Assembly (NCBI GenBank): GCA_045641325.1
Contig: JAZUGU010000100.1
Coordinates: 1-48,697, forward strand
Source of the DNA: Candidatus Avispirillum sp.
GTDB lineage: Bacteria > Bacillota > Clostridia > Oscillospirales > CAG-272
Direction: 5' to 3'
Length of the DNA stretch: 48,697 nt
The notes below the pieces were generated by a model, which made no database searches, was not told where the DNA came from, and worked only from the letters and a program-made list of their open reading frames with translations. Made by a program: the position numbers and the translations under genes. How positions within the stretch are numbered: the first letter of the stretch is position 1; each line of letters opens with the position of its first letter. Of the stretch, positions 13,501 through 35,711 are shown piece by piece.

Positions 13501-14810
13501 GTACGGGTAACTTCTGCGGACAGAAGAAAGTGGAATGGACCATCTCTCCCAAGGATATAACGGGCGCTGAGGTAAAACTCGGTACGACAACTTATAATGC
13601 AAGGATTCATAATCCTCCCATTGAGTCCGTGACAATAGACGGCATGGATGTAACGTACCGTATTTTCGGCGAAACGCAGAGCATCAGCGCCGGCAAACAC
13701 GTATTGACCATCGAGGGCACAGGAAACTTCTGCGGTCAGATAAATACCAAGTGGGAGATCCTCCCCTGCGATCTTTCCGAATGCACTATTACCTCAAAAC
13801 CCATCGAGTATTCCGGCGGCGAGGTCATGGCGCGTGCGTACATCAGAACGCCCGACGGCCAGACCCTCGATACGTATACCTATTCTTCCGACTTCAACGT
13901 AAAGAATTATAAGGCGACCGAGGTAGGCAATTACGTAATGACAGTGACCAGCAGAGGCAATAACTTCTCCGAGGGCACCTTTGAGGTACCGTGGGAAATA
14001 ATCCCCAGAGATATTTCCGATGCAAGAGTAAACCTCGAAAGATCGAAGTTCGTCTATACCGGGGAAGATGTCACCTGCAATGTACTTTCCGTATATGACG
14101 GAACTACAAAGGTAACCGATTTCGAGGTCACCGGAAACGTTGAAAAGGATGTAGGAAAGCACCTGCTGACGATCACAGGACATGGCAACTTCACCGGAAG
14201 CGTGACCGCGGAATGGCAGATAGCTCCCGGAACGTCGGCTCATTTCCTCACCTATGCGGATTACGAGCTCGATGAGCCCACCTATAACGGTAAAAAGCAG
14301 ACCTGCACGATCAGAATATTCGTCAACGGCCAAGAGGTCGACGATTATACGGTATCCGGCAACACAGGCACAGATGCAGGAGAATATGAGCTCACGGTAT
14401 ACGGTACCGGCAAATATGAGGGCGAAGTATTCAAGATCCCGTGGAGGATCGCACCAAAGCACGTTGACTCGTCCGATATCATCGTTGCGGCAGAAGATCC
14501 TGTGTTCAACGGAACAAAGCAGACCTGTGCAATAAAGAAAATCACGGTAAACGGTGTCGAGATCACCGATTATGACGTAGTGGGCAATACGGCATCCGCA
14601 CCCGGCGAATACGAAATGACAGTAACGCTCAAAGGCAATTACAGCGGCAGCGTCACCGTCAAATGGTCGGTGCTTCCGTCAGTATCGGATGATCCCGTTC
14701 CCACCCCTGTAACGGGTGATACTTCATCAGCGGCAATGTGGGCAGTATTGATGCTCGTATCGGCAATAGGCATCCTCCTCGCATCCCGCAAACGCAAAAA
14801 GAATTATTAA
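1545..14810 (+). CDS. Giant (4421 aa) secreted, putatively sortase-anchored surface protein with Calx-beta and Ig-like/MBG-like domains
   Basis: Sec signal peptide MLKRSLALVLTLVLILTSLPVNAIA; Calx-beta motifs (IGFETSKISV...VKRTG...VSYTTEDGTAKAGKQY...G.L.FGP..TETIEIP); YQWYR-type Ig-like domain; YDGKPHGI...FTDAGEYTV MBG-like module; 11 C-terminal repeats; TPVTGD plus hydrophobic helix plus RKRKK tail. No catalytic motif recognised. Confidence 0.8.
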   Translation: MLKRSLALVLTLVLILTSLPVNAIAASKGNNSIISDAGQNPANLPVSQEDIVLKPENAEIDYDEKWNKLYPYGTFAFADAGSTICEGAKDGSNTAFIPVYRIGGTDGTATVIVKYSPTVYAIDENHTSFSWAISSEDDIELSYEKASPLTDYQKISMPEIVPAPAGAEIGADVYDGEGAENSEKPVKLYPVFPEGKEVKCIDYQWQYHINGYSERDWVSLDNAKDPALIIDLCDISDDNGDPMYDYRLIYQTEDGYFCTPSLFDGKTFDPSSYDALDVPDDIDLTDNGEFEKLVPSEKFAGYEFPITFGDGEWVKYIKATALDNSEYELDEMGVFTLYECIGGQTSDLCNTYTITISDDDDNDIRESTIGFETSKISVSADEDSVMLEVKRTGDLRYMTTVSYTTEDGTAKAGKQYAQVSGDLMFGPDNDTETIEIPLISGDSRTEEMTFSVSLSAVRGGNGACTVSETAGKAEITLPSTAKSINTRQYGMLGAGNNISSVLAMPENAEFIESEESETPLLYDGSLEGSVSSPDDDIELIEAAGIKEGSFGIYDYDAVSLRRTADYANSSIYWKNNETPYYSDPASSVNDSVNYILRGATFNDKGELKPKSDGLGILSANYDTKTPAALDIKNAGYLFSHVQYKFDVTKVATCGQFLGIGYNYTMPWLNVKIGQNKTFCDFDPQDSESHPLKKMSFSNEQDLSFAPEDFHIDMNMTLNDAGEDSTKHESFVYVPGGKTVLQLSDLDFTRRQMTGTANIALRIFTANDDDSDNYVLAKEVYNSLRPKVTLVPGASGVTEEGFLYAGSRICVTLGYAASFRAYNKGENPDKTVFVTRLDGTAVPASVESSDGNSYYITFLWDNITEADLAAEYRINVVYERAQNISFDISPSLERDQAGNVRTDAESVGHSWENVFKNGSKETTVKVTYSKYDPTAGTDSGFVTKELSMPFSEIIADTSTPKGVISAKDTGVTNIQSVNFGLPTADVILFNGEQYAGDETILLCAAELTMPELTFTFYDEQYLNVENIMNLSISHKELYCDTNANGKIDGYYDQASGLFILDEKSGDTFCGIVGNEIPDDVLQPMINIKGNVAQYFFKVYYTMTPRALRDGEGTAQIIPAFVPQNTDAVSLSKLTYEQKSYRMIKAGATEIAPFDKSTGERGKAYSVPDTSEGHAMFGAAATKQTTLDIPLGGDVRSFRKVKINGIEKALDLPDYAGNLKFGFADPETFVITNLNGDSEEITDVNGYLGSFINNTSFVVGVQETREMKSQDDFNAESVTNGDVYAVPASNTAAIAGATKDQDATVNVGGTANMATELADLDTELLLPTMSLSALGVSANYLNNNQLLVSFGLTLFQTDFLKKDTPTETKTEVEGDEKKTTETEKKEDGTVEKETVTNKDNKSVISEQTTVKKETTVSDGEKESVIEQSFTQKENKDGSKEASILIEDKTTGDKLEIKDEAKAGEELEVLGEGFEKKVQTEKSGYFSDYLKKSLANSFDLADYIDAIKEYRKNKTTPFDEIRNFDKASNKWKKSFTFTLILQAYAVFEYNPLEGGWGIAAANASLTGVLAFSAKVRIPVAPLFYFFVNVTITVSAGADWEFANDYKTVDEIVPDGMTASETYSLANTGDSILFEVDTNKNDADGFRMKLNGKAYMKVSTDPDFDELALKGTLNSDGTDYTDVNLEDYGSHLYVLLTAKEDGVSISELNTVKCSLESSIDNGSLYAEFNFEIGLGAGIDLAKAEAYFRINAKATLPFRPTLFVDNFTLHGAVSFRIRLLMFEFSMSLVGVTFTGSRENGYGSPMEYNTYFEKFGDKERLNSTADEVAVGVSAPTSSASTQELFASYTPREGENAFHPTDTDVKFELSGYSGTGDAFKLADHLNGGYTYKGIEYNGETYILYMISDPRCRDNTLNASRLVLSKVVTIGENPGIQNPFDENSDTPYVMVDSQSDPLLRTGDLSFDCTVKDGKLTVVYTCYDTHFTSSDVLSVEDAGKHTVVKKTSVDLSDPASAAFETPVKLTGHAETYRFMPVSTESTVFYGETVNDTTVSQRDADLRAYMKAVYGINDEDYTDKDVDASKAQMVYRYLTQKAQRDLLGDSSRIAAVKEDGTVVNSDFGTKSGEILTQLKAVKIDSRYAVFYITEQDAYFGPDGKTQTADQFDENTDYAVITRLYMNVFNGTIWHTAKLLRQTVNFEHFTSSSSDDCMLRDGVYENGSLVREVVDPSISNIAFLSADLDGEGVKPVFTVEMDDNTYLINNENILRLVNGRTYTMQPIFSAETGTGLTIAADKNGNMAMAYIKVMDGTDSNAVYCAWWDKELGTWGEGSILAMNHLSVYENSVKYRLSAEQLEKAYLGDPTGNAEYDEYTNGENSEKGALDRFVFSRIQMLPSTQTYKFGDGRTEEREQLILLTDGTYSELEKGTHEVDGEEEEYLYESENYGNGFYAISFGSGEQAVGNASVEFDSGNFSCGTVLTGTASFTNIGSAAIRGSADQPVSVKLIAVSDDTGYYQVLDEFNVNYMIPSGSTVSLDFSTQPLQENLPSGTEFVLYISEDAEYISGSGGTAFSSVTDPLYTIRGGADIGIESLEYELISMDDDFVTVGTEFVVVNRGNETADGLFVQYSAVENKGDESEKLYPLDLTGSELRVSNETVITENYSNDVTNDIGAGVIALVDENGDDHLSSGYMRTVTGTLKIARDDFSRFGDKGLDLRCTLYSDSDNFTVNNDQYEKLGTKETARSDNAVTKLLSHDTSFSVPSNISMNLDNTLRVPIAFTSTNVDNDVVIREITDGSESWTSLFNDVYFDVSHKSVVATARKTGHTIIQIEDRETNSFREIAVTVKNDGYGINIFNDDNSFTFMNADGSDVKDDPIHADWDFRSDTKTWSGDYNVPMSEDYCYANKAGASVSFETVGTTLTVHYSGKIEVTSDLYPDKVFTGDNTGKTDEPLVIRFDNLDGKRQTVTIKALTEGTELDKYTAAYPEDTGVITKSDMTSPNIYWSRSFPNTASVLNGEEIAIDYFAADETGVASVTVNGVPVEISEPGQRLIKLSHVFSENGQYTFTVTDIDGNTTKHSFGVHWFGDHINKDALSECPDFRDSDVKVLDGGEHELGEKRAERVIIATSYDPDELEGELFRGYTNGNGTVSIPENEVNVAERPFSDDKYTAGIDAKTNGFYIMRVVAENGTWSQTVLDIDNLITAETALNVELSEDGKALEIEVDAQKTGVVPLYVKVNGYKLSPAPTELLSRYVFPITCGGTYEIEVFNGTDTYRAKVTPECKVTLENDGIIAASPVPEGAENGLIMADTEKLSGGTYDPALSDPAKNVYKVNYEFALVEGEKETELRNGTAGTWGDENMFENLKASRYTLGIRDKNDPDNVYVTFVTIGKTPKIDGEFTIDGEMSAGSKVKAVLSEKDYLGTLSYQWYRTKDGTEEKIEGADQAEYTVTEDDFFCYLSCKVTSSYETGVLSASGTDLVTVGAEGWDGEYDGKPHGISVNKTEREDVTVSYTVTDTVPGKAPTFTDAGEYTVDYYLVTNPPRYIPGTTRYYGDMVASSEKVTIARRDISSANIVFENVTYDGTEKQFKIRSITAGGVNVTNYDITGELSGVNAGKYTITVTGKGNFCGSITLDWEILPKDIRNAEITLEETAHVFDFTEQTCSVEKVTIGALTVDTYTVSGNKATDAGEYTLTVSGTGNYTGKAVITWTVAPLDITGAEIKPAEHTFLYSGENITIAPEDLTVTLDGKNIPVDANASVSGNEGTDKGLYTLSIDGSGNYTGRAKTDWRIVSDDFANAVVTFEEKEILRDGKEHTPVIKSVTVDGIPLDPDDYTVSGQTSGSEAGTYEITLTAKEPLHGAVTAEWKILSNDIKDATVVFYDTTYNGKDQTCRVKDLYMDGRRITSYTVTGEKTAKNAGDHLVTIIASGAYEGTLNAYWTIDPRDITYCTAVPETFIYNGAPQDLKFVSVKVGELDAEYDLMGKIRETDAGTYDAVIVGTGNFCGQKKVEWTISPKDITGAEVKLGTTTYNARIHNPPIESVTIDGMDVTYRIFGETQSISAGKHVLTIEGTGNFCGQINTKWEILPCDLSECTITSKPIEYSGGEVMARAYIRTPDGQTLDTYTYSSDFNVKNYKATEVGNYVMTVTSRGNNFSEGTFEVPWEIIPRDISDARVNLERSKFVYTGEDVTCNVLSVYDGTTKVTDFEVTGNVEKDVGKHLLTITGHGNFTGSVTAEWQIAPGTSAHFLTYADYELDEPTYNGKKQTCTIRIFVNGQEVDDYTVSGNTGTDAGEYELTVYGTGKYEGEVFKIPWRIAPKHVDSSDIIVAAEDPVFNGTKQTCAIKKITVNGVEITDYDVVGNTASAPGEYEMTVTLKGNYSGSVTVKWSVLPSVSDDPVPTPVTGDTSSAAMWAVLMLVSAIGILLASRKRKKNY
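2646..2985 (+). other. Calx-beta domain (intact copy)
   Basis: IGFETSKISVSADEDSVMLEVKRTGDLRYMTTVSYTTEDGTAKAGKQYAQVSGDLMFGPDNDTETIEIPLI matches the Calx-beta pattern. Confidence 0.8.
12207..14678 (+). repeat. 11 tandem divergent ~72-80-aa Ig-like stalk repeats
   Basis: Each unit runs xDIxxAxV...YxGxxQ...vxG....aGxYxlTvxGxGNfxG....WxIxP; 11 counted by eye. They are diverged at DNA level. Confidence 0.8.
14703..14807 (+). other. Cell-wall sorting signal (LPXTG-like TPVTG-D, TM helix, basic tail)
   Basis: TPVTGDTSSAAMWAVLMLVSAIGILLASRKRKKNY at the extreme C-terminus. Confidence 0.75.
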
Positions 14811-14815
14811 TATCC

Positions 14816-14839
14816 GCGGGGCAGGTAAAACTGCCCCGT
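14816..14839 (+). other. GC-rich intercistronic stem-loop without a U-tract
   Basis: gcggggcag-gtaaaa-ctgccccgt (9-bp stem with one G-U pair), followed by gcatacc rather than a T-run. Confidence 0.6.
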
Positions 14840-14864
14840 GCATACCGTAAAAGCGGAGGCAAAT

Positions 14865-17426
14865 ATGAAAAGGACTACTTATAAAGGAAAAGCTCTTGAG
14901 AATATCTCGTTTCCTCTCGGCGGAATAGGCACCGGATGCATAGGACTTGCGGGCAACGGAAGCCTTGTGGACTGGGAAATATATAACGGCCCCAATAAAG
15001 GCTCCGATAACGGATTTTCCCACTTTGCCGTAAAGACGGAAAAGGACGGTAAAGTCGTAGATGCAAGAGTGCTGAACGGCGACAGAACGAAAGACCTTCT
15101 CGGTCAGCTGGGCAAGGGCTTCGGCCACGGCATGTCAAACGTTACCATGGCAGGCTTTCCCCATTTCAGAGACTGTACGTTCACCGGAGAATTCCCCATA
15201 GCAGAGCTTACGCTGTCGGATGAGGATTTTCCCGGCTGTGCAAAGGTCACGGCGTTCAATCCGCTGATACCTCTTGATTCGGATTCTTCAAGCCTTCCGG
15301 TCGCCATGTTCAGCATAGAGCTTGAAAACACCACGGATTCACCTCTCTGCTATACCTTGTCGGCAGTTCTCAGAAATCCCCGCTGGAAATCCGTCAATAA
15401 AGCAATACGCAAAGAGAACATGACGGGTATATTCCTTGACAGCGCAGACAACAGGGAAGACAGTACGGACTATTGTGAAATGACGCTGGCAACACCCGAT
15501 ACGGAAGATGTGTTCCCGGAGGAATACTGGTTCAGAGGTATGTGGTATGACCACATAGAAACGTATTGGAGAGAGCTCACGACAGCGGGATTTCCCGCGG
15601 AGCGTAAGTATGACACTCCCGGTACCAACGACCATTCCACGCTTTTCGTGAAAAAGAGTGCTGAGCCCGGTGAAAAAGTGATTTTCCGCTTCGTGCTCTC
15701 ATGGAATAAGCCTCTGTTTGAAAACTGGTGGCTGCCTCCGAAAAATCCCGACGGCACGGAAAACAGAGTGAAGCTTAAAAATTATTATTCCACCCGTTTC
15801 CCCACCTCAAAGGACAGCGCGGAGTATGCCATCACAAACTGGGAAAGACTCTGGAACGGCACGAAGAAATTTCACGATGCGCTTTTCTCCTCAACACTTC
15901 CCGAAGAAGTGATAGACGCTGTCTCCTCCACGGTGTCCGTGCTGAAAACGCCCACCTGCCTCCGCATCGGTGAAAAGGGCGATTTCTGGGGCTGGGAGGG
16001 ACTCGGCGAACACGCCGGCTCCTGCGAGGGTACCTGTACCCACGTGTGGAATTACGTGTACTCCACCTGTTTCCTGTTCCCGGATATTGAAAGAAATATA
16101 AGAGAAAACGATTATAAATATAATCAGCAGCCCTCAGGTGAAATGAGTTTCAGAACAAAGCTTCCCTTCGGAAGCGAGCCCGGTACCAACAGAGGCTGTC
16201 TTGACGGCACCATGGGCGGCGTCATGAAGACCTACCGCGAGTGGAAACTCTCCGGCGATGACGAATGGCTCCGCAGTATATGGGGAAGTGTAAAACGCTC
16301 TCTCGAATACGCATGGAGCGAAGAAAACAAAGATGCGTGGGATCGCGACCGTGACGGCGTTGCGGAAGGCCGTCAGCACCATACACTCGATATGGAGCTT
16401 TTCGGACCTTCCTCCTGGCTTGAGGGCTTCTACCTCGGAGCGCTTAAAGCGGGCTCCGAAATGGCACGTTATCTGGGAGATCCGGATGCCGATCTTTATG
16501 AAGAGCTCTTTGAAAACGGCAAAAAATGGACTCGTGAAAACCTTTTCAACGGGAAATACTTTATTCAGAAACTCGACCTTAACGACAGAAAGCTTCTGGA
16601 AAAATACTGTAACGGTACGGTAGATATATTCGGCAACGATGCCACGGAATCGTACTGGAACTCCGAAACCGGCGAGATTAAATATCAGATCGGAGAGGGC
16701 TGCGAGATAGACCAGATGCTTGCACAATGGCACGCAGATATCCTCGGGCTCGGCGATCTTTTCGATCCCGGGCAGGTGGATATCGCATTGCACAGCATGT
16801 ATAAAAACAATTTCAAGCCCGATATGAGAAAGGTTGCCAATCCTTTCCGTATCTTCGCTCTCAACGGTGATGCCGGAGCCATCATGTGCGATTTCCCCGA
16901 AGGCGCAAGAAGGCCCACTATCCCCATCCTCACCTCCTGCGAGACCATGCACGGATTTGAGTATTCGTTCGCAGGGCTTCTCATGAGCCGCGGACTTATC
17001 GATGAGGGCCTTTCCGTGGTACGGGGCGTCCGTGACAGATATAACGGCGAAAAGAGAAACCCCTGGAACGAGATCGAATGCGGCTCAAACTACGCGCGCA
17101 GTATGTCAAGCTTTTCGTTCCTGCCCATCCTTTCCGGCATGAGCTTCGATGCCGTGAAATACCATCTGGGCTTTGAGCCGAAGCTGAACACCGACGATTT
17201 CCGGGTATTCTTTTCAAACGGAACAGCCTGGGGAATATACGAAGCCACGAATAACACGGCAAAGATTACCGTCCTCGGCGGAGAGCTGAAGCTGAAAACT
17301 CTTAAAGCGTCCGCGGCAGGGAAGGTGTACGCTGACGGAAAGGAAGTCAGCACATCTTCAGTTGACGGCACCGTTGTGTTCGATACCGCAGTATCGGTTA
17401 AGGAATCTTTGATTGTAAAGGAATAA
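14865..17426 (+). CDS. Glycoside hydrolase family 116 (GBA2-like beta-glycosidase)
   Basis: N-terminal FPLGGIGTGCIGL motif, FTGEFPIAEL, WEG...CEGTCTHVWNY, QHHTLDMELFG, RNPWNEIECGSNYARSMS. Start moved to ATG 14865 (GGAGG at 14855-14859). No signal peptide. Confidence 0.85.
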   Translation: MKRTTYKGKALENISFPLGGIGTGCIGLAGNGSLVDWEIYNGPNKGSDNGFSHFAVKTEKDGKVVDARVLNGDRTKDLLGQLGKGFGHGMSNVTMAGFPHFRDCTFTGEFPIAELTLSDEDFPGCAKVTAFNPLIPLDSDSSSLPVAMFSIELENTTDSPLCYTLSAVLRNPRWKSVNKAIRKENMTGIFLDSADNREDSTDYCEMTLATPDTEDVFPEEYWFRGMWYDHIETYWRELTTAGFPAERKYDTPGTNDHSTLFVKKSAEPGEKVIFRFVLSWNKPLFENWWLPPKNPDGTENRVKLKNYYSTRFPTSKDSAEYAITNWERLWNGTKKFHDALFSSTLPEEVIDAVSSTVSVLKTPTCLRIGEKGDFWGWEGLGEHAGSCEGTCTHVWNYVYSTCFLFPDIERNIRENDYKYNQQPSGEMSFRTKLPFGSEPGTNRGCLDGTMGGVMKTYREWKLSGDDEWLRSIWGSVKRSLEYAWSEENKDAWDRDRDGVAEGRQHHTLDMELFGPSSWLEGFYLGALKAGSEMARYLGDPDADLYEELFENGKKWTRENLFNGKYFIQKLDLNDRKLLEKYCNGTVDIFGNDATESYWNSETGEIKYQIGEGCEIDQMLAQWHADILGLGDLFDPGQVDIALHSMYKNNFKPDMRKVANPFRIFALNGDAGAIMCDFPEGARRPTIPILTSCETMHGFEYSFAGLLMSRGLIDEGLSVVRGVRDRYNGEKRNPWNEIECGSNYARSMSSFSFLPILSGMSFDAVKYHLGFEPKLNTDDFRVFFSNGTAWGIYEATNNTAKITVLGGELKLKTLKASAAGKVYADGKEVSTSSVDGTVVFDTAVSVKESLIVKE

Positions 17427-27478: not shown

Positions 27479-27505
27479 CATTAGTGAAGCCCGTAATCCT
27501 CCGTG

Positions 27506-27535
27506 GTCTTTTTTTATCTTGTCCGAATATATATT
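27506..27535 (+). promoter_or_regulatory. Possible sigma-E-like promoter of spoIIIA
   Basis: Candidate -10 tATAtatT (27528-27535) fits cATAcanT, but the -35 (gtcttt) is weak. Position is expected from the known sigma-E control of spoIIIA. Confidence 0.3.
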
Positions 27536-27559
27536 ACTGTGAAAAGGAGGCGAAACGAA

Positions 27560-28447
27560 ATGGAAAGAACAAACTACACGGAAGAATATGCGATAACGTA
27601 TCTGCCCAAAAGAATAGCGGAGTCCGTCAGAAAAACAGCGGCTCTGTATAACGGTAAGATCAGCGAGATAAGATTGCGTTCCTCCTGTCCCGTGTATATA
27701 ACGGCAGGGGAGAAAAACGTTTCCTGCTCCGTCAGCTGTACTGCGGACGAGATGTATGAAACCGTGAGAACTCTTTGCGGTAATTCCATGTACTGCCATT
27801 CCGAAACCATAAAGGAAGGCTATATATGTACCCCCGGCGGGATAAGAGCAGGTGTCTGCGGGAGAGCTGTAACTGAAAACGGAAAAATCAGTGCCGTTAC
27901 CGATATAAGCTCGGTGGTAATGAGAATACCTCACCGTTTTCCGGGCGCTTCCGACAGCCTTTGCAGGCTCATCTGCCGTGAGAATTTCAGAGGAATGATA
28001 ATATATTCGGAGCCGGGGAAAGGAAAGACCACGGCTCTGCGTGAAATATGTGCCCGGCTCGGTGCCGCACCGTACAGTATGCGGATAGCGGTAATAGATA
28101 CGAGATTTGAGATATGCGGTGCTCTGGGAGGCGAGTATACTCTGGATGCCTTGTACGGCTATCCCAGAGCGCAGGGGATAGAAACCGCTGTCAGATGCCT
28201 TTCTCCGGAGCTTATCGTGTGCGACGAGATAGGCAATGCCTCCGATGCGGATGCCATACTCCAGAGCATGGGAGCAGGTGTCCCCACGGTGGTCAGCGCC
28301 CACGCGGGAAGTGTTGAGGAACTGAAAATGAAGCCGTATATCAATATGCTTCTTGAAAGCGGAGCTTTCAATTATACGGTTGGCATCGAAAGAGAGGGGA
28401 CCGACGTTTCATATATTGTGAAAGAGCGGGAAACGGTGCCGTGCTGA
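27560..28447 (+). CDS. spoIIIAA: Stage III sporulation protein AA (ATPase)
   Basis: EIRLR, GYICTPGGIRAGVCG, SEPGKGKTT, AVRCLSPELIVCDEIG, SAHAGS. Start moved to ATG 27560 (AAGGAGG). Confidence 0.9.
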   Translation: MERTNYTEEYAITYLPKRIAESVRKTAALYNGKISEIRLRSSCPVYITAGEKNVSCSVSCTADEMYETVRTLCGNSMYCHSETIKEGYICTPGGIRAGVCGRAVTENGKISAVTDISSVVMRIPHRFPGASDSLCRLICRENFRGMIIYSEPGKGKTTALREICARLGAAPYSMRIAVIDTRFEICGALGGEYTLDALYGYPRAQGIETAVRCLSPELIVCDEIGNASDADAILQSMGAGVPTVVSAHAGSVEELKMKPYINMLLESGAFNYTVGIEREGTDVSYIVKERETVPC

Positions 28448-28917
28448 AATTCGCGGGATGTGCGGTAACGGTCTTCTGCTCCGCAGTATGGGGATATGAG
28501 AAAAGCAGGTCTTTGAACAGATCACTTCAGCTGGCAATATCGCTGACAGCTCTGGTAAAACGAATAGGCAATGACATAGATACTTTGAAAAAGCCCCTTA
28601 ACGACATCTATGCGGATTACGTTGACGAACTGCTTGAAGAAGCAGGATTTCTCGCAGACCTTCGTGAGAGAGGATTCCGTGAAGCATTGGAAAAAGTAAA
28701 AAAGTCCCTGCCGGATGGAGCGTATGACGTTCTTTATCCGTTTGCCGTGAGGATCGGCGGCATGGATAAGGAAACGGAATCTGCTCTTTGCAGGGGCACA
28801 GCCGCCAATCTTGAAGGTATAATAAACGCTGCAAAGGAAAAAATGCCCGAAAAAACGAAAATGTACAGATTACTGCCTGTTCTTTGCGCTCTTTCGGTGG
28901 TGATACTTATAATTTGA
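28441..28917 (+). CDS. spoIIIAB: Stage III sporulation protein AB
   Basis: N- and C-terminal TM helices, MLKFAG start, RIGGMD, KMYRLL motif; second gene of the operon. Confidence 0.8.
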   Translation: MLKFAGCAVTVFCSAVWGYEKSRSLNRSLQLAISLTALVKRIGNDIDTLKKPLNDIYADYVDELLEEAGFLADLRERGFREALEKVKKSLPDGAYDVLYPFAVRIGGMDKETESALCRGTAANLEGIINAAKEKMPEKTKMYRLLPVLCALSVVILII

Positions 28918-28918
28918 A

Positions 28919-29113
28919 ATGGATATATCTTTTCTTCTCAAAACGGTAGGAGTCGGAGTAATAGTTGCGATATCGGGGTATATGCTCCAGAAATCGGGGA
29001 GAGATGAGCAGGCGATGCTTGTAACGGTAGGCGGTGCCATAGCGGTGCTTTTGATGCTCGTAACGCAGATGGGCTCTCTTCTCGACGAGGTCAGAAAGGT
29101 CTTCGGTCTGTAA
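28919..29113 (+). CDS. spoIIIAC: Stage III sporulation protein AC
   Basis: 64 aa, MDISFLLKTVGVGVI...LQKSGRDEQAMLVTVGG...FGL. Confidence 0.92.
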   Translation: MDISFLLKTVGVGVIVAISGYMLQKSGRDEQAMLVTVGGAIAVLLMLVTQMGSLLDEVRKVFGL

Positions 29114-29496
29114 TGCTGAACATTCTGAAGCTGACCGGCATCGTAATAACGGGACTGTTTGCCTCACTCCTTTTCAAAGAAAGCAATCGGACCGTGTCCG
29201 CGGTGACCGTAATATGCACGTTTCTGACAGCGGTGCTTTTCTCCGTGAGAGGCGGTATCAGTGAGGCTGTCGGTGCTCTCAGCGCCAACATGGGAGACGA
29301 GCTTGCCGAAAAGGCAGGCGTGCTTCTGAAAGCCGTCGGTATATCGTATATCACGGGCATATCCTGCGAGCTGTGCAGCTCCGCCGGGGAGGGAACGCTC
29401 GCTGATGCGGCGGGATTTGCGGGAAAAACCGAAATAATCCTGCTTTGTGTTCCCATGATATCGGAACTGCTTTCGATCGCCGGACAAACTATATGA
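29113..29496 (+). CDS. spoIIIAD: Stage III sporulation protein AD
   Basis: LLKAVGISYITGISCELCSSAGEGTLA...GKTEIILLCVPMI motif. Confidence 0.9.
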   Translation: MLNILKLTGIVITGLFASLLFKESNRTVSAVTVICTFLTAVLFSVRGGISEAVGALSANMGDELAEKAGVLLKAVGISYITGISCELCSSAGEGTLADAAGFAGKTEIILLCVPMISELLSIAGQTI

Positions 29497-30605
29497 AATC
29501 AATATTAAAAGCGCTGACGGTCATGCTGCTTCTTTTCATATTCATTTTGCCCGTTTCCGCCGAAACGTACAGCTTTGAATTCGATGAGGGAAGCGGAGCT
29601 GAAAGCTTATACGATGACTACGTCGGATCGCTCCCTCATGACGTTAAAGAAAAACTGCATGACGATACCTCGGAATACGATTTCGGATATTTCGCGGATG
29701 AGATCGTTTCAGCGGTTAAAGAATCCGTCGGTAAAGCGATGGGGATGCTTTCGAAGCTTGCGGGAACCGTTGTGCTCGCATCTGCCGTCAATATAATGTC
29801 AAAGCATTTTGAGGGGCACAGATCCCGTGCATTCTCATTTTGCTCGTCACTTTGCGTGGTACTTCTCATATGGGATGTTTTCGTATCAGTCTCAGATATG
29901 GCAAAAGTGCTGCTTGAAACGCTTTCAAATGCAATGCTTATGATATCCCCTGTCATGGAGGGAATGCTGATATATTCCGGAAATATAACGGCGGCATCCG
30001 TTTCGGGGGCGGGAGTCGGCGTAATGATCACCCTGGGAGAGAACCTTTTCTCAAAGGTGCTTTTCCCGTGTGCGGTCATATGCTTCTTTCTGTCATCTGC
30101 CTCGGCAATAGCGGAAAACTCAGGGATTTCCTATATGTCAAAGCTTCTGAAAGGTCTGGTGACAGGAGGCCTTATCGCATCAATGGCTCTTATGTCATTC
30201 GTTATAGCGATACAGAACACGGCAGCGACCGCAGCTGACTCTCTTGCGGCAAAAACGCTGAAATTCGCAATAAGCAGTTATCTTCCCATAGTCGGAGGAA
30301 CAGTTGCCGATTCATTTTCCTGCCTTGCCGCAAGCGTTCAGGTGATAAAACAGCTTTGCGGCGTCACCGGGATAGTGGTTCTTGTGATCGTGCTCATACC
30401 GCCCTTCGTTATGCTTTTAGCAGACCGTATCGCCATAGGTGTCGCGGGGGCTCTTGCGGGGATGCTCGAATGTGAGCGGGAAAAGACCGTGCTCGATGAA
30501 GCAGGGAGCATTTGCACCGTTATGATAGCGGTATGCGCGGGGGCTTCTGTCATGTATATGATAGCATTGGGAATATTCTGCAGAACGGCGGTGGCGATAA
30601 GCTGA
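29493..30605 (+). CDS. spoIIIAE: Stage III sporulation protein AE
   Basis: Polytopic; KTLKFAISSYLPIVGGTVADS...VIKQLCGVTG motif. Start moved to ATG 29493 (ATGA overlap with spoIIIAD). Confidence 0.9.
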   Translation: MKSILKALTVMLLLFIFILPVSAETYSFEFDEGSGAESLYDDYVGSLPHDVKEKLHDDTSEYDFGYFADEIVSAVKESVGKAMGMLSKLAGTVVLASAVNIMSKHFEGHRSRAFSFCSSLCVVLLIWDVFVSVSDMAKVLLETLSNAMLMISPVMEGMLIYSGNITAASVSGAGVGVMITLGENLFSKVLFPCAVICFFLSSASAIAENSGISYMSKLLKGLVTGGLIASMALMSFVIAIQNTAATAADSLAAKTLKFAISSYLPIVGGTVADSFSCLAASVQVIKQLCGVTGIVVLVIVLIPPFVMLLADRIAIGVAGALAGMLECEREKTVLDEAGSICTVMIAVCAGASVMYMIALGIFCRTAVAIS

Positions 30606-31042
30606 TGAAAACGTATGTGTATTCCGTTATCTGTGTAACTCTTTTCACAGCTGTGATGAAAGTCATAGCACCGGAAAAGAACGGAATGTCAAAGTACGTT
30701 TCGTTCATATGCGCTCTTGCCGTGGCGCTGACGCTGCTGTCACCGCTGTGCCGTGATATCACGGAAATATCCACGGATGAAAGCATATTGTCAGGCGCGG
30801 AGCACAATGGGGAACAAGCCGAAAAAAATGCCGGGAATTACGCAGGAGCCGCAGCTGATATGCTTTCGGTAATGTCGGGTGCGGATAAGGAAAGGATCAC
30901 CGCGGATGTTGACACAGATGCAAACGGAAACATTCTGCAGATAAGATTGTACTGCGATGAACAAATCGGTGAAAATAACAGCTACGGAGAAAGCCTTTCC
31001 GATATTTTTGATACTGAAATTATCGTAATTGGCAGTAAATAG
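30605..31042 (+). CDS. spoIIIAF: Stage III sporulation protein AF (divergent)
   Basis: Two N-terminal TM helices with IAPEKNGMSKYVSFICAL..LLSPL; sixth gene of the operon. Start moved to ATG 30605 (TGATG overlap). Confidence 0.75.
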   Translation: MKTYVYSVICVTLFTAVMKVIAPEKNGMSKYVSFICALAVALTLLSPLCRDITEISTDESILSGAEHNGEQAEKNAGNYAGAAADMLSVMSGADKERITADVDTDANGNILQIRLYCDEQIGENNSYGESLSDIFDTEIIVIGSK

Positions 31043-31043
31043 G

Positions 31044-31499
31044 ATGAATTTTAGGATAAAAAACAAGAAAATATGGCTTGCAGTCATAGCATTTGCGGGA
31101 GTCATCATGATCATATTGCCATCGGTCATCCCCGATAAAAAGGAAACGAAAGAAGAGATAACTTATTACAGCGAACAGCTTGAGCAGAGAATAACGGATC
31201 TTATTTCGGACATCGACGGGATCGAAAACGTGTCGGTGATGCTGACTCTCGATTGCGGAAACGAATACGTTTATGCGGAAAATACGGATTCTACTGCAGA
31301 CAGGACCGTGTCCGACTACGTGGTCATTTCGTCCGGCGGCGGTGAAAGCACCGTTCAGCTCAAAGAGATATATCCCAGAGTAAGGGGCGTTGCCGTAGTC
31401 TGCACGGGCGGCGATGCTGTCGGGATAAAAAATAAGATAACAGAGCTCCTTTCCTCTTCCCTGGGAATACCGACAAACAGAATAACCGTGTGCGGATAA
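31044..31499 (+). CDS. spoIIIAG: Stage III sporulation protein AG
   Basis: LEQRITDLISDIDGIENVSVMLTL...YPRVRGVAVVCTGGD...LGIPTNRITV. ATG 31044 lies 1 nt after the AF stop; TTG 31029 is the alternative. Confidence 0.88.
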   Translation: MNFRIKNKKIWLAVIAFAGVIMIILPSVIPDKKETKEEITYYSEQLEQRITDLISDIDGIENVSVMLTLDCGNEYVYAENTDSTADRTVSDYVVISSGGGESTVQLKEIYPRVRGVAVVCTGGDAVGIKNKITELLSSSLGIPTNRITVCG

Positions 31500-31528
31500 G
31501 TCATACTTGTAATTCCCGTGAATATTAT
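31500..31528 (+). promoter_or_regulatory. Candidate internal sigma-E-like promoter upstream of spoIIIAH
   Basis: GTCATA (31500-31505), 15 bp, aATAttaT (31521-31528). Spacing is about 1 bp shorter than the B. subtilis sigma-E consensus. Confidence 0.35.
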
Positions 31529-31555
31529 TTACCAAAGAAATGAAAGGTGGTTGCG

Positions 31556-32143
31556 ATGAATAAAGAGAAAATCAAAACGATAGGTGAAAAAGCCAAAAAT
31601 TTCGTACTTAAGCTGAACAAGAAAGCCGTCATATCGGTAGTTGCGGTTCTTATCCTCGGCACGGCGGTCCTCTTGAATTTTCTGCTTGTACCTCAGAACG
31701 GCGTTTCTGCAAAAAAACTCAAAACAAAGCTTGATCTGACGGATGTTTCCGCCGCGGTAGAAGAAAAGGAAAAGGCAGAGAAGAACGAAGAAAAAGCAGA
31801 TGCCTTCGCCGAAATGAACCTTACCCGTCAGCGCTCGAGAGATGAGGCGATAGAGGTGCTGAACACAGTCGCCATGAGCGATACGGCAGTAGAATCCGTA
31901 AAGACCGATGCCATGAACGAGATTCAGCAGATCGCCCGTGATATCGAAAGCGAAGCCAATATAGAAAGCCTCGTGAAAGCCAAGGGATTCGAGCAATGTG
32001 TGGCTGTGGTGAACGGCGATTCCGCCAGTATCATTATCAAAACGGACGGCCTTTTGCAGAACGAGGTCGCGCAGATAAGCGAAATCGTCTATAAGGAAGC
32101 CGGAGTAAAACCGGATGATCTGAAAATCATCGAATCGAATTAA
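31556..32143 (+). CDS. spoIIIAH: Stage III sporulation protein AH
   Basis: TM anchor, FAEMNLTRQRSR, EANIESLVKAKGFEQCVAVVNGDSASIII...QISEIV. Start moved to ATG 31556 (AAAGGTGG). Confidence 0.9.
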   Translation: MNKEKIKTIGEKAKNFVLKLNKKAVISVVAVLILGTAVLLNFLLVPQNGVSAKKLKTKLDLTDVSAAVEEKEKAEKNEEKADAFAEMNLTRQRSRDEAIEVLNTVAMSDTAVESVKTDAMNEIQQIARDIESEANIESLVKAKGFEQCVAVVNGDSASIIIKTDGLLQNEVAQISEIVYKEAGVKPDDLKIIESN

Positions 32144-32145
32144 AC

Positions 32146-32172
32146 AAAGCCGGCGATCGCCGGCTTTATTTT
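32146..32172 (+). terminator. Terminator-like palindrome after spoIIIAH
   Basis: Perfect 22-bp palindrome aaagccggcgatcgccggcttt followed by atttt. Confidence 0.7.
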
Positions 32173-32189
32173 GCAAAATGGAGATTATC

Positions 32190-33326
32190 ATGAAAAAAAT
32201 AATCAGTCTTATTCTGGTTGTAGGTATGTTTTTGCCTTTTTGCTGTTCAGTCAGCGCGGAAGAAAAACCGTTTGATGTAAATGCCAAGAGCGCAATTCTC
32301 ATGGAAGCATCCACCGGACAGGTGCTGTATTCAAAATATCCGGACGATCCGCTGCCTCCTGCATCCGTTACAAAAGTCATGACTCTGCTGCTTGTAATGG
32401 AAGCAATAGACCGGAACACTCTCGCTATGAGCGATACCGTGACCGTCAGCGAATATGCGGCATCTATGGGCGGATCACAGGTGTATCTTGAGCCGTTTGA
32501 GGAAATGACGGTGGAGGATATGCTGAAAAGCGTAGTAATAGCATCCGCAAACGATGCGGCCGTCGCCCTTGCCGAAAAGGTTGCGGGAAGTGAAGAAGCC
32601 TTCGTGAATGACATGAACGAAAAAGCAAAGAAGCTCGGTATGAAAAGCACCAGCTTTGAAAACGTGACGGGACTTGATGATGATACCAAAAACCACGTAA
32701 CAAGCGCGAGAGATATAGCTATCATGTCACGGGAGCTGATAACGAAGCACCCTGCCATATTAAATTACAGTTCCATATGGATGGACAGTATCAGAAACGG
32801 AGAATTCGGGCTGACCAATACAAACAGACTTGTGCGGTTTTATAAGGGTGCAACGGGCTTGAAAACCGGATCAACGTCAAAAGCCGGATTCTGTATGAGT
32901 GCCACGGCTGAAAGAGACGGTATGGATCTTATCGCGGTAATTATGGGAAGTGACACGAGAGATACGAGAAATGCCGCCGCGGCAACCTTGCTTGACTGGG
33001 GCTTTGCAACTTATTCGGTATATAAAACGGAAAGCGAAACTGCCGGGAGAATAAAAGTCACCGGCGGATGCGAAAAAGACGTGGAGGCAATAATCCCGCC
33101 TGCCGGCTTCCTTCTGAAAAAAACCGGCGGGGAAGTCGGGAAAAAAGTCGAGCTGAACGAATGTGCCGAAGCACCGGTCAAAAAAGGAGATGTCCTCGGC
33201 AAGATCACATATGAATGTAAAGGCACGGTAATAGGTGAAAGCGAGATTACCGCTGCCCGAGACGTAGAAGGTATATCATACTTCGGCGTATTGATTAAAA
33301 TTATCCGTTCATGTTTTTGTCTGTGA
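32190..33326 (+). CDS. dacF: D-alanyl-D-alanine carboxypeptidase (peptidase S11), DacF-like
   Basis: SxxK (ASVTK), SxN (ASAND) and KTG (LKTGST); the ASMGGSQVYLEP and NTNRLVRFYKG segments are typical of DacF. Start moved to ATG 32190 (GGAGA). Confidence 0.82.
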   Translation: MKKIISLILVVGMFLPFCCSVSAEEKPFDVNAKSAILMEASTGQVLYSKYPDDPLPPASVTKVMTLLLVMEAIDRNTLAMSDTVTVSEYAASMGGSQVYLEPFEEMTVEDMLKSVVIASANDAAVALAEKVAGSEEAFVNDMNEKAKKLGMKSTSFENVTGLDDDTKNHVTSARDIAIMSRELITKHPAILNYSSIWMDSIRNGEFGLTNTNRLVRFYKGATGLKTGSTSKAGFCMSATAERDGMDLIAVIMGSDTRDTRNAAAATLLDWGFATYSVYKTESETAGRIKVTGGCEKDVEAIIPPAGFLLKKTGGEVGKKVELNECAEAPVKKGDVLGKITYECKGTVIGESEITAARDVEGISYFGVLIKIIRSCFCL

Positions 33327-33350: not shown

Positions 33351-33378
33351 TTGACAAATCTTTCTTGAAAAGTATAAT
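33351..33378 (+). promoter_or_regulatory. Consensus sigma-A promoter of the CotH-dockerin gene
   Basis: TTGACA, 16-bp spacer, TATAAT. Confidence 0.85.
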
Positions 33379-33422
33379 AATATACAGAGAATATGCCAAT
33401 TACGAAAGGAAGTAAATCATTT

Positions 33423-35711
33423 ATGAAAAAACTCGTTTCATTAGTGCTTGCCGTACTTATCCTCATTCCTTCCGCGGTGCTGTCCGTGCTTGCGGAGGAG
33501 ACCGTGCATACTCACGCGGGTGCGCTGGTCCAGATAATGACCGAAAACGTAGACGGCATTGACTTCTGCGGAAAATTCCATTGCGATTCCTGCGGAGAGG
33601 ATTATTATGCCCCCGTGACGTACGAGGACGTAGGGATGCCTATCATCAACATTTCCGGCTCGCAGGAGGGAATGAGTAAGGAAAACGAGGTCCTGCTGAA
33701 CGTTTCCTATTCTTCCGAAAATGTGAACTTCACATCTGCCGCTTCCTTCAAATGGCAGGGCGGAACGTCCGTTGACTTTGATAAAAAGAACTATACGATG
33801 AAACTCCTCAAGGACGACGGATCCAAGAACAAGATAAAGATCGTCGATGAATGGGGCAAACAGAGCAAATACTGCCTCAAGGCAAACTGGGTAGATGCAT
33901 CCCACAGCAGAAACATAGTGTCCGCAAGGATATATAACGAGATAGTCCACTCAAGATGTCTCGATGACGAGCTGGAAGCCCTTCCCAACGGCGGTGCTGT
34001 GGACGGTTTTCCCGTTGCGCTGTACGATAACGGACAGTTCTACGGACTTTATACTCTCAATATTCCCAAGGATAACTGGGCATGGGGTATGAATGATGAA
34101 AACCTTCGCCAGGCTCTCCTTTTCGGCGGCTCGTGGACGGAAAGCGTCAGACTTAATACTCCCATCGCCGACGTAAACGATCCCGCGGCATCCGGCTTTG
34201 ACATTGAGTACTGTTCGACGGAAGACGATCCCGAGGTAGGCTGTACCTGGGCAGTTGAAAGCTTCAACAATTTTATCAACTTCCTGAGAAACACTACCAA
34301 TCAGAGCACCTTCCGCAGCAAAGTGGGACAGTATACATCAGTTGAGCGCGCCATCGACGTGCTGATATTCTCATATTTCATCCATGCAGACGATAACCTG
34401 GCAAAAAATATCGTATGGGCGACCTATGACGGCACAGTCTGGATCCCTTGCATGTACGATATGGATGCTACGTGGGGCCTTTTCTGGGACGGCACAATGA
34501 ACGTTTCCGCAAAGGGAATGTATTTCGGCGGAGGAAATCTCCTGTTCAACCGTCTTCTCAGCTTCTACAGCAGCGAAATAGAAGCACGCTACACCGAGCT
34601 CAGAAAGGATATTTTCTCAAGGAAAACGATCGAGCATTATTTCACCGATTTCTTCGATTCCGTTACCGATGTTGTCAGAAATGCCGATGCGGCTAAATGG
34701 CCCGGAGTACCTTCAAGAAGCACGAACAACTATAACAGCATATATTCTTTTGCGACAACCCGCATGGCTGATTACGATAATCACTATTTCGGTACGTCAG
34801 TAAAGGAAAACACCCGTTGGGACGAAAAGGTATCGTTCAATACGACGGGTGGATGTAAGTTCTATGTCTATCCCTATGAGGATTATACGGTTCAGCCCAC
34901 AAGATCGATAGCGGCATATCCGGTCGATTCAACGGGAGCAGTTGTCAGAAAAGGCAATGAGGTCAATTTCCTTGTAGTGCCTCCGGAGGGAATGCTTATT
35001 GACAGCGTTTCGGTGCGTGGTGACAGCGGCTATTCCGAAATACTCGGTCCCGATGATACGGGCGCCGAAAACGTGTACAGAATAGTTGAAGTATCCGATT
35101 TTATTGATGTTGACGTTGCATTATCCGAGATCCCCAGCGGTTATGACGTAACTTTCGATGCGTGCGGAAACGCCGATATTTATGTATTCCCGGGAAGTGA
35201 CTATACTGCTTCTCCCGTGCAGAGCACAAGCACCGTATCCGTTGACTCTTCTACAGGAGTCCCGACAAAGAGCGGCGACGGACAGGTCAATTTCATGATA
35301 GTACCTCATAACGGCTATACTATCGGTGAGGTGACCGTGTCTCCCGCAAATTATAAAAACCTGAAAACTCCGGATGATACCGAAAATGAAAATACTTACA
35401 GGATCACAAAGATAACCGGAGATCTGACCGTAACCGTAACGCTTATCGAGGGGCACGTGCATAATTTCATCTTCGGAAGATGCATCGAGTGCTTCGAGCG
35501 TGATGAGGATTACACCGGAAGACCCATCGGTGACATAGACGGTGACGAGAAGATCACGGCAAAGGACACGAATCTTCTGAAAAAGGCGATCGTCGGCGCG
35601 TATTTGATTACGGGCGACGATGTATATGCCGCAGATGTCTACGGTGACGGAAAGCTCACCGTCGGCGATGTCAACCAGCTCAAAAAACTGATAACCGGAT
35701 CTGCAGGATAA
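33423..35711 (+). CDS. Secreted CotH-family kinase with two Ig-like repeats and a C-terminal dockerin
   Basis: Signal peptide MKKLVSLVLAVLILIPSAVLSVLA. CotH motifs KWQGGTS..FDKKNYTMK, LKANWVD.SHSRN, GQFYGLYTL, DDNLAKN and YDMDATWG. Two ~100-aa repeats. Dockerin GDIDGDEKITAKD/ADVYGDGKLTVGD. Start moved to ATG 33423. Confidence 0.82.
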   Translation: MKKLVSLVLAVLILIPSAVLSVLAEETVHTHAGALVQIMTENVDGIDFCGKFHCDSCGEDYYAPVTYEDVGMPIINISGSQEGMSKENEVLLNVSYSSENVNFTSAASFKWQGGTSVDFDKKNYTMKLLKDDGSKNKIKIVDEWGKQSKYCLKANWVDASHSRNIVSARIYNEIVHSRCLDDELEALPNGGAVDGFPVALYDNGQFYGLYTLNIPKDNWAWGMNDENLRQALLFGGSWTESVRLNTPIADVNDPAASGFDIEYCSTEDDPEVGCTWAVESFNNFINFLRNTTNQSTFRSKVGQYTSVERAIDVLIFSYFIHADDNLAKNIVWATYDGTVWIPCMYDMDATWGLFWDGTMNVSAKGMYFGGGNLLFNRLLSFYSSEIEARYTELRKDIFSRKTIEHYFTDFFDSVTDVVRNADAAKWPGVPSRSTNNYNSIYSFATTRMADYDNHYFGTSVKENTRWDEKVSFNTTGGCKFYVYPYEDYTVQPTRSIAAYPVDSTGAVVRKGNEVNFLVVPPEGMLIDSVSVRGDSGYSEILGPDDTGAENVYRIVEVSDFIDVDVALSEIPSGYDVTFDACGNADIYVFPGSDYTASPVQSTSTVSVDSSTGVPTKSGDGQVNFMIVPHNGYTIGEVTVSPANYKNLKTPDDTENENTYRITKITGDLTVTVTLIEGHVHNFIFGRCIECFERDEDYTGRPIGDIDGDEKITAKDTNLLKKAIVGAYLITGDDVYAADVYGDGKLTVGDVNQLKKLITGSAG
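34824..35450 (+). repeat. Two ~100-aa tandem beta-sandwich repeats
   Basis: Both units share V.F.....dxYVxPxxDYT.xP......vDS.tG....G..VNFxxvPxxGxxIxxVxV......xPDDTxxENxYRIxxxxxxxxVxVxL. Confidence 0.7.
35526..35708 (+). other. Dockerin domain (second Ca loop partly degenerate)
   Basis: DIDGDEKITAKD..LLKK and DVYGDGKLTVGD..QLKK. Confidence 0.75.

Follow-up and report, generated by a model that had tools for sequence, protein, structure and literature searches.

A predicted Sec-exported, dockerin-bearing member of the CotH kinase family from an uncultured Candidatus Avispirillum is a likely surface-docked phosphotransferase

The contig JAZUGU010000100.1 of Candidatus Avispirillum sp. (assembly GCA_045641325.1), analysed over its whole 48,697 nt on the forward strand and called the window here, contains a gene for a predicted Sec-exported, dockerin-bearing member of the CotH family. 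To judge from its sequence, the protein is likely a surface-docked, probably active phosphotransferase. We are highly confident of the identity and modular architecture of the protein; confidence in the later steps, from catalysis to substrate and phosphate donor, is graded below. The gene comes from a metagenome-assembled genome (MAG) of 1.9 Mb, in 172 contigs and 96% complete. Its product is an ordinary example of a widespread and already annotated family, and it shows no feature by which it could be told from the cellulosomal CotH proteins already known.

Results

Residues are numbered throughout on the 772-aa version of the open reading frame (33393-35711, plus strand), whose start was used in an earlier reading of this DNA, made from the sequence only. 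M11 of this version corresponds to ATG 33423, the start of the stored gene call. ATG 33423 is likely the translation start, rather than ATG 33393, because a good Shine-Dalgarno element, GAAAGGAAG, precedes it and because ATG 33393 lies only ~7 nt past the expected start of the transcript. The Sec signal, CotH core, two immunoglobulin-like (Ig-like) repeats, His/Cys motifs and dockerin described in the sequence-only reading are all present where it had placed them (Table 1).

Table 1. Features of the CotH-dockerin gene and its upstream context. Positions are those of the window; pLDDT, predicted local distance difference test.
Feature	Position	Strand	Residues	Remarks
spoIIIAA-AH and S11 D,D-carboxypeptidase gene (32178-33326)	27503..33326	+		upstream context, outside the unit
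Sigma-A-type promoter	33351..33378	+		TTGACA 33351-33356, 16-nt spacer, TATAAT 33373-33378; consensus match 12/12
Shine-Dalgarno GAAAGGAAG	33404..33412	+		10 nt 5' of ATG 33423
CotH-dockerin precursor coding sequence	33423..35711	+		stored gene call, 762 aa
Signal peptide MKKLVSLVLAVLILIPSAVLSVLA	33423..33494	+	11-34	predicted cleavage after VLA; helix at residues 9-33 in model
N-terminal His/Cys mini-module, three-stranded sheet	33507..33617	+	39-75	H39, H41, C59, C64, C67; pLDDT ~90
CotH atypical-kinase domain	33639..34787	+	83-465	Pfam PF08757 and Foldseek
Catalytic loop DDNLAKN	34389..34409	+	333-339	D334 = B. subtilis D228 (catalytic Asp); N339 five residues on
YDMD	34455..34466	+	355-358	D356 = B. 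subtilis D251, DFG-like metal-binding Asp
Two tandem beta-sandwich (Ig-like) repeats	34821..35453	+	~477-581, 582-687	38% identical, E 1e-16
Second His/Cys motif HVHNFIFGRCIEC (H-x-H...C-x-x-C)	35454..35492	+	688-700	low-confidence linker, pLDDT <50 at 688-708
Type I dockerin	35526..35696	+	712-768	Dockerin_1 E 2.7e-7 (713-767)

The central domain belongs to the CotH family by both sequence and fold. The Pfam CotH profile (PF08757) matches residues 122-458 over profile positions 4-319 of 322, with an E-value of 1.3e-21 and a score of 77.9 bits against a cut-off of 23.8; the Dockerin_1 score exceeds its cut-off as well. The AlphaFold2 model, for which the input alignment comprised 29 sequences, has a mean pLDDT of 88 and a predicted template modelling score of 0.72, and is poor only at the extreme N-terminus and in linker 688-708. 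When this model was compared with the PDB using Foldseek, the only strong matches were to B. cereus CotH, in complex with Mg2+ and AMP (5JDA) and in the apo form (5JD9), with an E-value of 2e-17, a target-normalised template modelling (TM) score of 0.79 and 15% identity over 403 columns. Distant next matches were to PI3-kinase catalytic domains. When the PDB was searched by sequence or profile, neither the CotH-dockerin protein nor an alignment of its relatives (A1) retrieved a CotH entry, even at an E-value of 10, and an NCBIfam scan of the protein matched no model.

Residues 57-355 of 5JD9 were recovered via alignments to CotH genes of other genomes that lie closer to the Pfam family. In an hhalign comparison of the family profile with this fragment, D334, N339 and D356 aligned with B. 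cereus D224, N229 and D247, respectively. The fold match backs this mapping, as does the spacing between the two Asp residues, which is 22 here versus 23 in B. cereus. The D228-D251 spacing of B. subtilis CotH is also 23, by which the offset of 4 between the B. cereus and B. subtilis numbering was checked. A profile-profile comparison of A1 with alignment A2 gave the identical residue mapping, with a statistically weak E-value of 0.27. In B. subtilis CotH, the substitutions D228Q and D251A abolish kinase activity (PMC7821199). The corresponding signature, DNxxKN...YD[LM]D, is kept in all 121 homologues, at 36-68% identity. We judge it probable, on this evidence, that the CotH core is catalytically competent.

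Two lysines were considered as well. K131, in the motif KKNY (131-134), occupies a conserved basic position, and its role in ATP binding could not be confirmed. K163, in the motif LKAN (162-165), aligns with an Asn of B. cereus CotH and is therefore not a family-wide lysine. The sequence-only reading, which had called the kinase core intact-looking, holds for the catalytic Asp, Asn and Asp, with the motifs DDNxxKN and YDMD both aligning. That reading had also put forward structure prediction versus B. cereus CotH as a check, with misaligned catalytic residues as the outcome that would count against it; the fold matched, and no such misalignment was found.

Several smaller modules surround the core. 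A hydrophobic stretch is present at the N-terminus of 115 of 121 homologues, in line with the predicted signal peptide. The His/Cys mini-module that follows, with HTH at 39-41 and CDSC at 64-67, is kept as H.H...CG.F.C..CG in nearly all relatives (alignment A1), and the pattern [FY]xCxxC occurs N-terminal to the CotH core in 106/120 homologues. This module is probably a small metal-binding knuckle, where metal binding is something we infer. Long N-terminal arrays of ~22-residue units, H-x-W/F-x4-C-x5-C-x2-C-G, stand before the CotH core in some relatives (e.g. P0106, P0115 and P0083; A1 columns 60-400); no Pfam family covers the array, and the single module of the window protein resembles one such unit in expanded form. 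C-terminal to the core, the Ig-like repeats are all-beta in the model (pLDDT ~90), and a Pfam scan of them matched no family. They lead into the second His/Cys motif, with HVH at 688-690 and CIEC at 697-700. A 467-aa dockerin protein encoded on another contig (C138) carries HVHDFVDGVCTGCG directly before its dockerin, as the CotH protein carries HVHNFIFGRCIEC, and these are the only two proteins in the genome that fit the pattern.

The C-terminal dockerin has Ca loops DIDGDEKITAKD, from residue 714, and DVYGDGKLTVGD, from residue 748, and the C. thermocellum dockerins 2CCL and 1OHZ of the PDB match this region by sequence and by fold. The first loop is canonical. The second has Tyr instead of Asp or Asn at position 3; of the 45 dockerin-like loop pairs that the genome encodes, no other has Tyr at this position of the second repeat. 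The CotH dockerin also scores low among the 61 Pfam dockerin matches of the genome. Twelve cohesin modules are encoded on 8 contigs; given these and the roughly 61 dockerin matches, a surface system is available on which the CotH-dockerin protein could dock. Hence a signal peptide, a type I dockerin with two Ca repeats and cohesins encoded in the same genome are all found for this CotH.

A word-based search yielded ~1,000 relatives, which, where they are named, are called 'CotH kinase family protein'. In GTDB, the subfamily is present in at least 241 species genomes, almost all from uncultured gut or rumen Clostridia, with a few from Synergistaceae and Bacilli; the best match (51% identity) is in an Acutalibacteraceae MAG. 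Core and N-terminal module stay the same across the family, and the tail is variable, carrying a dockerin (6/121), SLH, Fn3, Flg_new or collagen. Such interchangeable anchors, to which the transmembrane segment of the second CotH copy described below can be added, fit a surface-displayed enzyme that uses the anchoring system available in its host. In one group of relatives (P0014-P0027; A1 columns 1100-1328), the dockerin is replaced by a Cys/His-rich tail with a conserved hydrophobic stretch and a C-x-C-G-x-x-H-Y end. This tail may be another anchoring or metal-binding device.

Another CotH gene of this subfamily is present in the genome (contig C96, 12409-14190, minus strand) and encodes 595 aa with a core 42% identical to that of the window protein. 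Its product combines a cytoplasmic tail rich in His (H13) with a single transmembrane helix and CxxC motifs, and has neither a signal peptide nor a dockerin. The gene lies between those for a GH94-like phosphorylase and an MBL-fold lipoprotein, and an orthologue in a congener (G009) has the same upstream gene.

The sequence-only reading had placed the gene under a perfect vegetative promoter, TTGACA-16-TATAAT, and the sequence and its coordinates were borne out exactly. The promoter does not stand out in this genome: perfect TTGACA-N16-18-TATAAT sites number 91 in the 1.9-Mb genome, compared to 0.6 expected from composition. We therefore rejected the perfect promoter as a special signal, and take it to indicate ordinary vegetative transcription, with nothing exceptional about it. 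Two orthologue loci (L025 and L026) have TTGACT-17-TATAAT and TTGACT-17-TAAAAT at the equivalent position. Nearly all of the 91 perfect sites lie directly 5' of transfer RNA genes or of genes with a good ribosome-binding site. Genes with such promoters include many that encode signal peptides, on contigs that also carry cohesin modules.

The gene lies directly after spoIIIAH and the gene for an S11 D,D-carboxypeptidase, with pgi downstream, and no terminator-like hairpin was seen between the end of the carboxypeptidase gene (33326) and the CotH gene, or 3' of the CotH gene. Read-through from spoIIIA-dac in the mother cell could, on this arrangement, give the protein a sporulation-linked role on the spore envelope layers, closer to that of Bacillus CotH. 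The closest relative (P0003, 67% identity, locus L025) has the same spoIIIAH-...-carboxypeptidase-CotH order. However, six homologues of greater distance lack the spoIIIA/dac neighbourhood, and orthologues in sporulation and non-sporulation contexts alike have, as does the window gene, their own sigma-A-type promoter. Moreover, a signal peptide and a dockerin misfit a coat protein, because the coat is assembled from the mother-cell cytoplasm. A strict coat CotH of the Bacillus type would be cytoplasmic and expressed from a late-sporulation promoter; the signal peptide, dockerin and sigma-A consensus found here are different on each count. Since the adjacency is limited to the closest relative, a coat role is weakened. 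We rejected the adjacency as functional and give a sporulation-linked envelope role little probability.

These data lend partial support to the proposal, made in the sequence-only reading, of a surface-complex kinase rather than a coat protein. In its favour are the predicted export and dockerin, the catalytic set, the cohesin system, the gene's own sigma-A promoter and the non-conserved spoIIIA/dac neighbourhood. The further suggestion of that reading, that Ser/Thr-rich surface proteins such as the 4421-aa protein are candidate substrates, gained no support.

Discussion

Proteins combining CotH with a dockerin have been known since C. thermocellum CseP (2003), with reports from several bacteria that produce cellulosomes and from anaerobic fungi. 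A kinase role for cellulosomal CotH proteins (CseP, Ccel_1101 and fungal CotH) has already been raised in the literature (PMC12484212, PMC12774918), and hence the kinase hypothesis for the window protein restates a question that was already open. Among the group are C. thermocellum CseP (Cthe_0044) and Cthe_0239, R. cellulolyticum Ccel_1101, and the CotH proteins of Ruminococcus and anaerobic-fungal cellulosomes. Like these, the window protein is a predicted secreted CotH with a dockerin in a host with cohesin scaffolds, and for the group a kinase or structural role has been suggested (PMC12484212, PMC6083626, PMC12774918); the likeness is one of architecture. Unlike these, it has a His/Cys mini-module before the core and two Ig-like repeats after it, and it comes from an uncultured Clostridia MAG of the gut or rumen with a small genome of 1.9 Mb.

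Bacillus CotH, represented by the B. cereus structures, resembles the window protein in fold (TM 0.79) and has the catalytic Asp, the Asn and the metal-binding Asp in common with it. The two are only ~15% identical, however, and Bacillus CotH is without signal peptide, dockerin and Ig-like repeats. It is sigma-K-dependent, resides in the mother-cell cytoplasm and has CotB and CotG as substrates (PMC7821199), whereas the window protein has predicted export and a sigma-A-type promoter. A further likeness is to the pel accessory set of S. intermedius (SIR_1592-1594), in that both genomes combine an extracytoplasmic CotH with a VTC and DUF4956 pair. In contrast to that set, the window CotH is unlinked to VTC/DUF4956, which lie on another contig, and carries a dockerin.

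According to the model that we favour, growing cells would make the protein and export it by Sec, and its dockerin would bind a cohesin of a cell-surface complex. D334 would act as catalytic base, while N339 and D356 would hold the metal-nucleotide. Hydroxyls of surface components would be phosphorylated, most probably those of Ser/Thr in linker-rich surface or scaffold proteins, and phosphate would come either from ATP in the environment or from polyphosphate that the VTC and DUF4956 pair exports. Taken as a whole, this chain, from Sec export and cohesin docking to a competent CotH phosphotransferase that modifies surface hydroxyls with one of these donors, stands in our estimation evenly between right and wrong. 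That the substrates are proteins rather than glycans is a tentative preference, which we hold with less confidence than the chain itself.

Secretory-pathway kinases such as Fam20B and POMK phosphorylate sugars, and the window protein could likewise be a glycan or polymer phosphotransferase, acting on exopolysaccharide, wall polymer, glycoprotein glycan or dietary polysaccharide. The pel exopolysaccharide loci of Gram-positive bacteria include secreted CotH genes in their accessory sets (PMC7112168), and in S. intermedius, deletion of SIR_1594, a secreted CotH-FN3 gene, lowers Pel-dependent aggregation (PMC12345266). Within the subfamily, distant relatives often adjoin glycan genes (O-antigen ligase and GT2, arabinofuranosidase, GH25, GH16 and GH95), with others adjoining a large Flg_new/Big_2 surface protein gene or housekeeping genes, and in relatives, a gene for a DUF4832-like secreted protein of hydrolase type comes after the VTC-linked CotH genes. 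These glycan neighbours are variable, however, with none conserved. Pfam detected no carbohydrate-binding module in the CotH-dockerin protein, and the sole biochemically defined CotH substrates, CotB and CotG, are proteins (PMC7821199). We consider activity on glycans unlikely.

Another possibility is that the cohesin-dockerin complex uses the CotH fold for binding or assembly, as a structural or adhesive part with no catalytic function. CseP was first described as a 'possibly structural protein', in the wording of a reference in PMC6083626; cellulosomal CotH proteins have been termed 'without any defined function' (PMC12774918); and some CotH proteins act as receptor ligands, as does CotH3 of Mucorales with its host receptor (PMC9973265). 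The lack of a known extracellular phosphate donor also fits this idea. On the other hand, every one of the 121 homologues retains D334, N339 and D356, which is not expected of a pure scaffold, and the fold match is to a nucleotide-bound kinase (5JDA). We therefore see only a slight chance that the protein is purely structural, and return to the question of what would supply phosphate to a surface-docked phosphotransferase.

Bacillus CotH, a cytoplasmic enzyme, has access to ATP. For an exported CotH there is no obvious phosphate donor. The genome contains an overlapping, polyphosphate polymerase-like pair of genes, encoding a VTC-domain protein and a DUF4956 membrane protein (contig C138, ~14310-15680, minus strand), and no CotH gene adjoins them. 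Many relatives have clusters in which VTC and DUF4956 are joined by a membrane-anchored CotH and a DUF4832-like gene for a secreted protein of hydrolase type (e.g. locus L152, on contig C5 of genome G017). The same accessory gene set has been described beside Gram-positive pel loci (PMC7112168), and deletion of the secreted CotH or DUF4956 gene in S. intermedius reduces Pel-dependent aggregation (PMC12345266). Synteny of DUF4956/MgtC-like, polyphosphate polymerase and CotH genes was stated not to have been found outside Pel loci (PMC12345266). The set of three genes (DUF4956, polyphosphate polymerase and CotH) is common in the gut Clostridia genomes examined here.

To quantify co-occurrence, we considered 29 genomes outside the genus of the window, from other genera of the family and from other families of the order. 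VTC is present in 13/14 genomes with CotH versus 5/15 without (Fisher P = 0.0017). Within the genus, the exceptions to this co-occurrence are all incomplete MAGs. The VTC and DUF4956 pair thus suggests a possible extracellular phosphate donor. More specifically, the docked CotH and the membrane-anchored CotH could form the outer catalytic end of an extracellular phosphorylation system, with the unlinked VTC and DUF4956 proteins making polyphosphate and threading it through the membrane as the donor. We regard this extended scheme as improbable. If it were true, polyphosphate would solve the problem of missing extracellular ATP, and parts of the cohesin-dockerin surface complex could then be phosphorylated.

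A number of observations weigh against the protein being a surface-docked phosphotransferase of the kind we favour. The residue mapping has moderate support from hhalign (E 2.7e-4, probability 42%), and the ATP-binding lysine is unmapped because the N-terminal 56 residues of 5JD9 were not recovered. As the second Ca loop of the dockerin is atypical, cohesin binding is assumed. Upstream of the CotH gene are sporulation-type genes with no terminator in between. ATP is scarce outside cells. No conserved neighbour, partner or substrate gene was found in 80 related loci of the subfamily (6-kb flanks), and in none of these 80 loci does a VTC or DUF4956 gene lie within 6 kb. The link to the polyphosphate genes is therefore one of co-occurrence only, and by adjacency the window CotH falls outside the VTC-DUF4956-CotH gene module.

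Anaerobes of the gut and rumen, and anaerobic fungi as well, commonly have CotH proteins that are secreted and cellulosome-bound, but the 2025 paper quoted above assigns them no defined function (PMC12774918). This locus adds a clean bacterial case in which the catalytic residues are fully conserved, evidence for an interchangeable anchor module on a constant core, and a genome whose only CotH genes are unlinked from the VTC/DUF4956 pair. One caveat is that the gene comes from an uncultured MAG, and the question is no easier to test here than with CseP or Ccel_1101. Extracellular phosphorylation of surface complexes, if true, would represent a new regulatory layer for fibre- or starch-degrading machinery.

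One further feature was seen around the short (~460 aa) relatives. An ABC-transporter-like gene, absent from the window, lies near them in 17/80 loci (L034-L113), and its product has an ATPase N-terminus and a length of ~530-660 aa (e.g. L051, 9635-11620).

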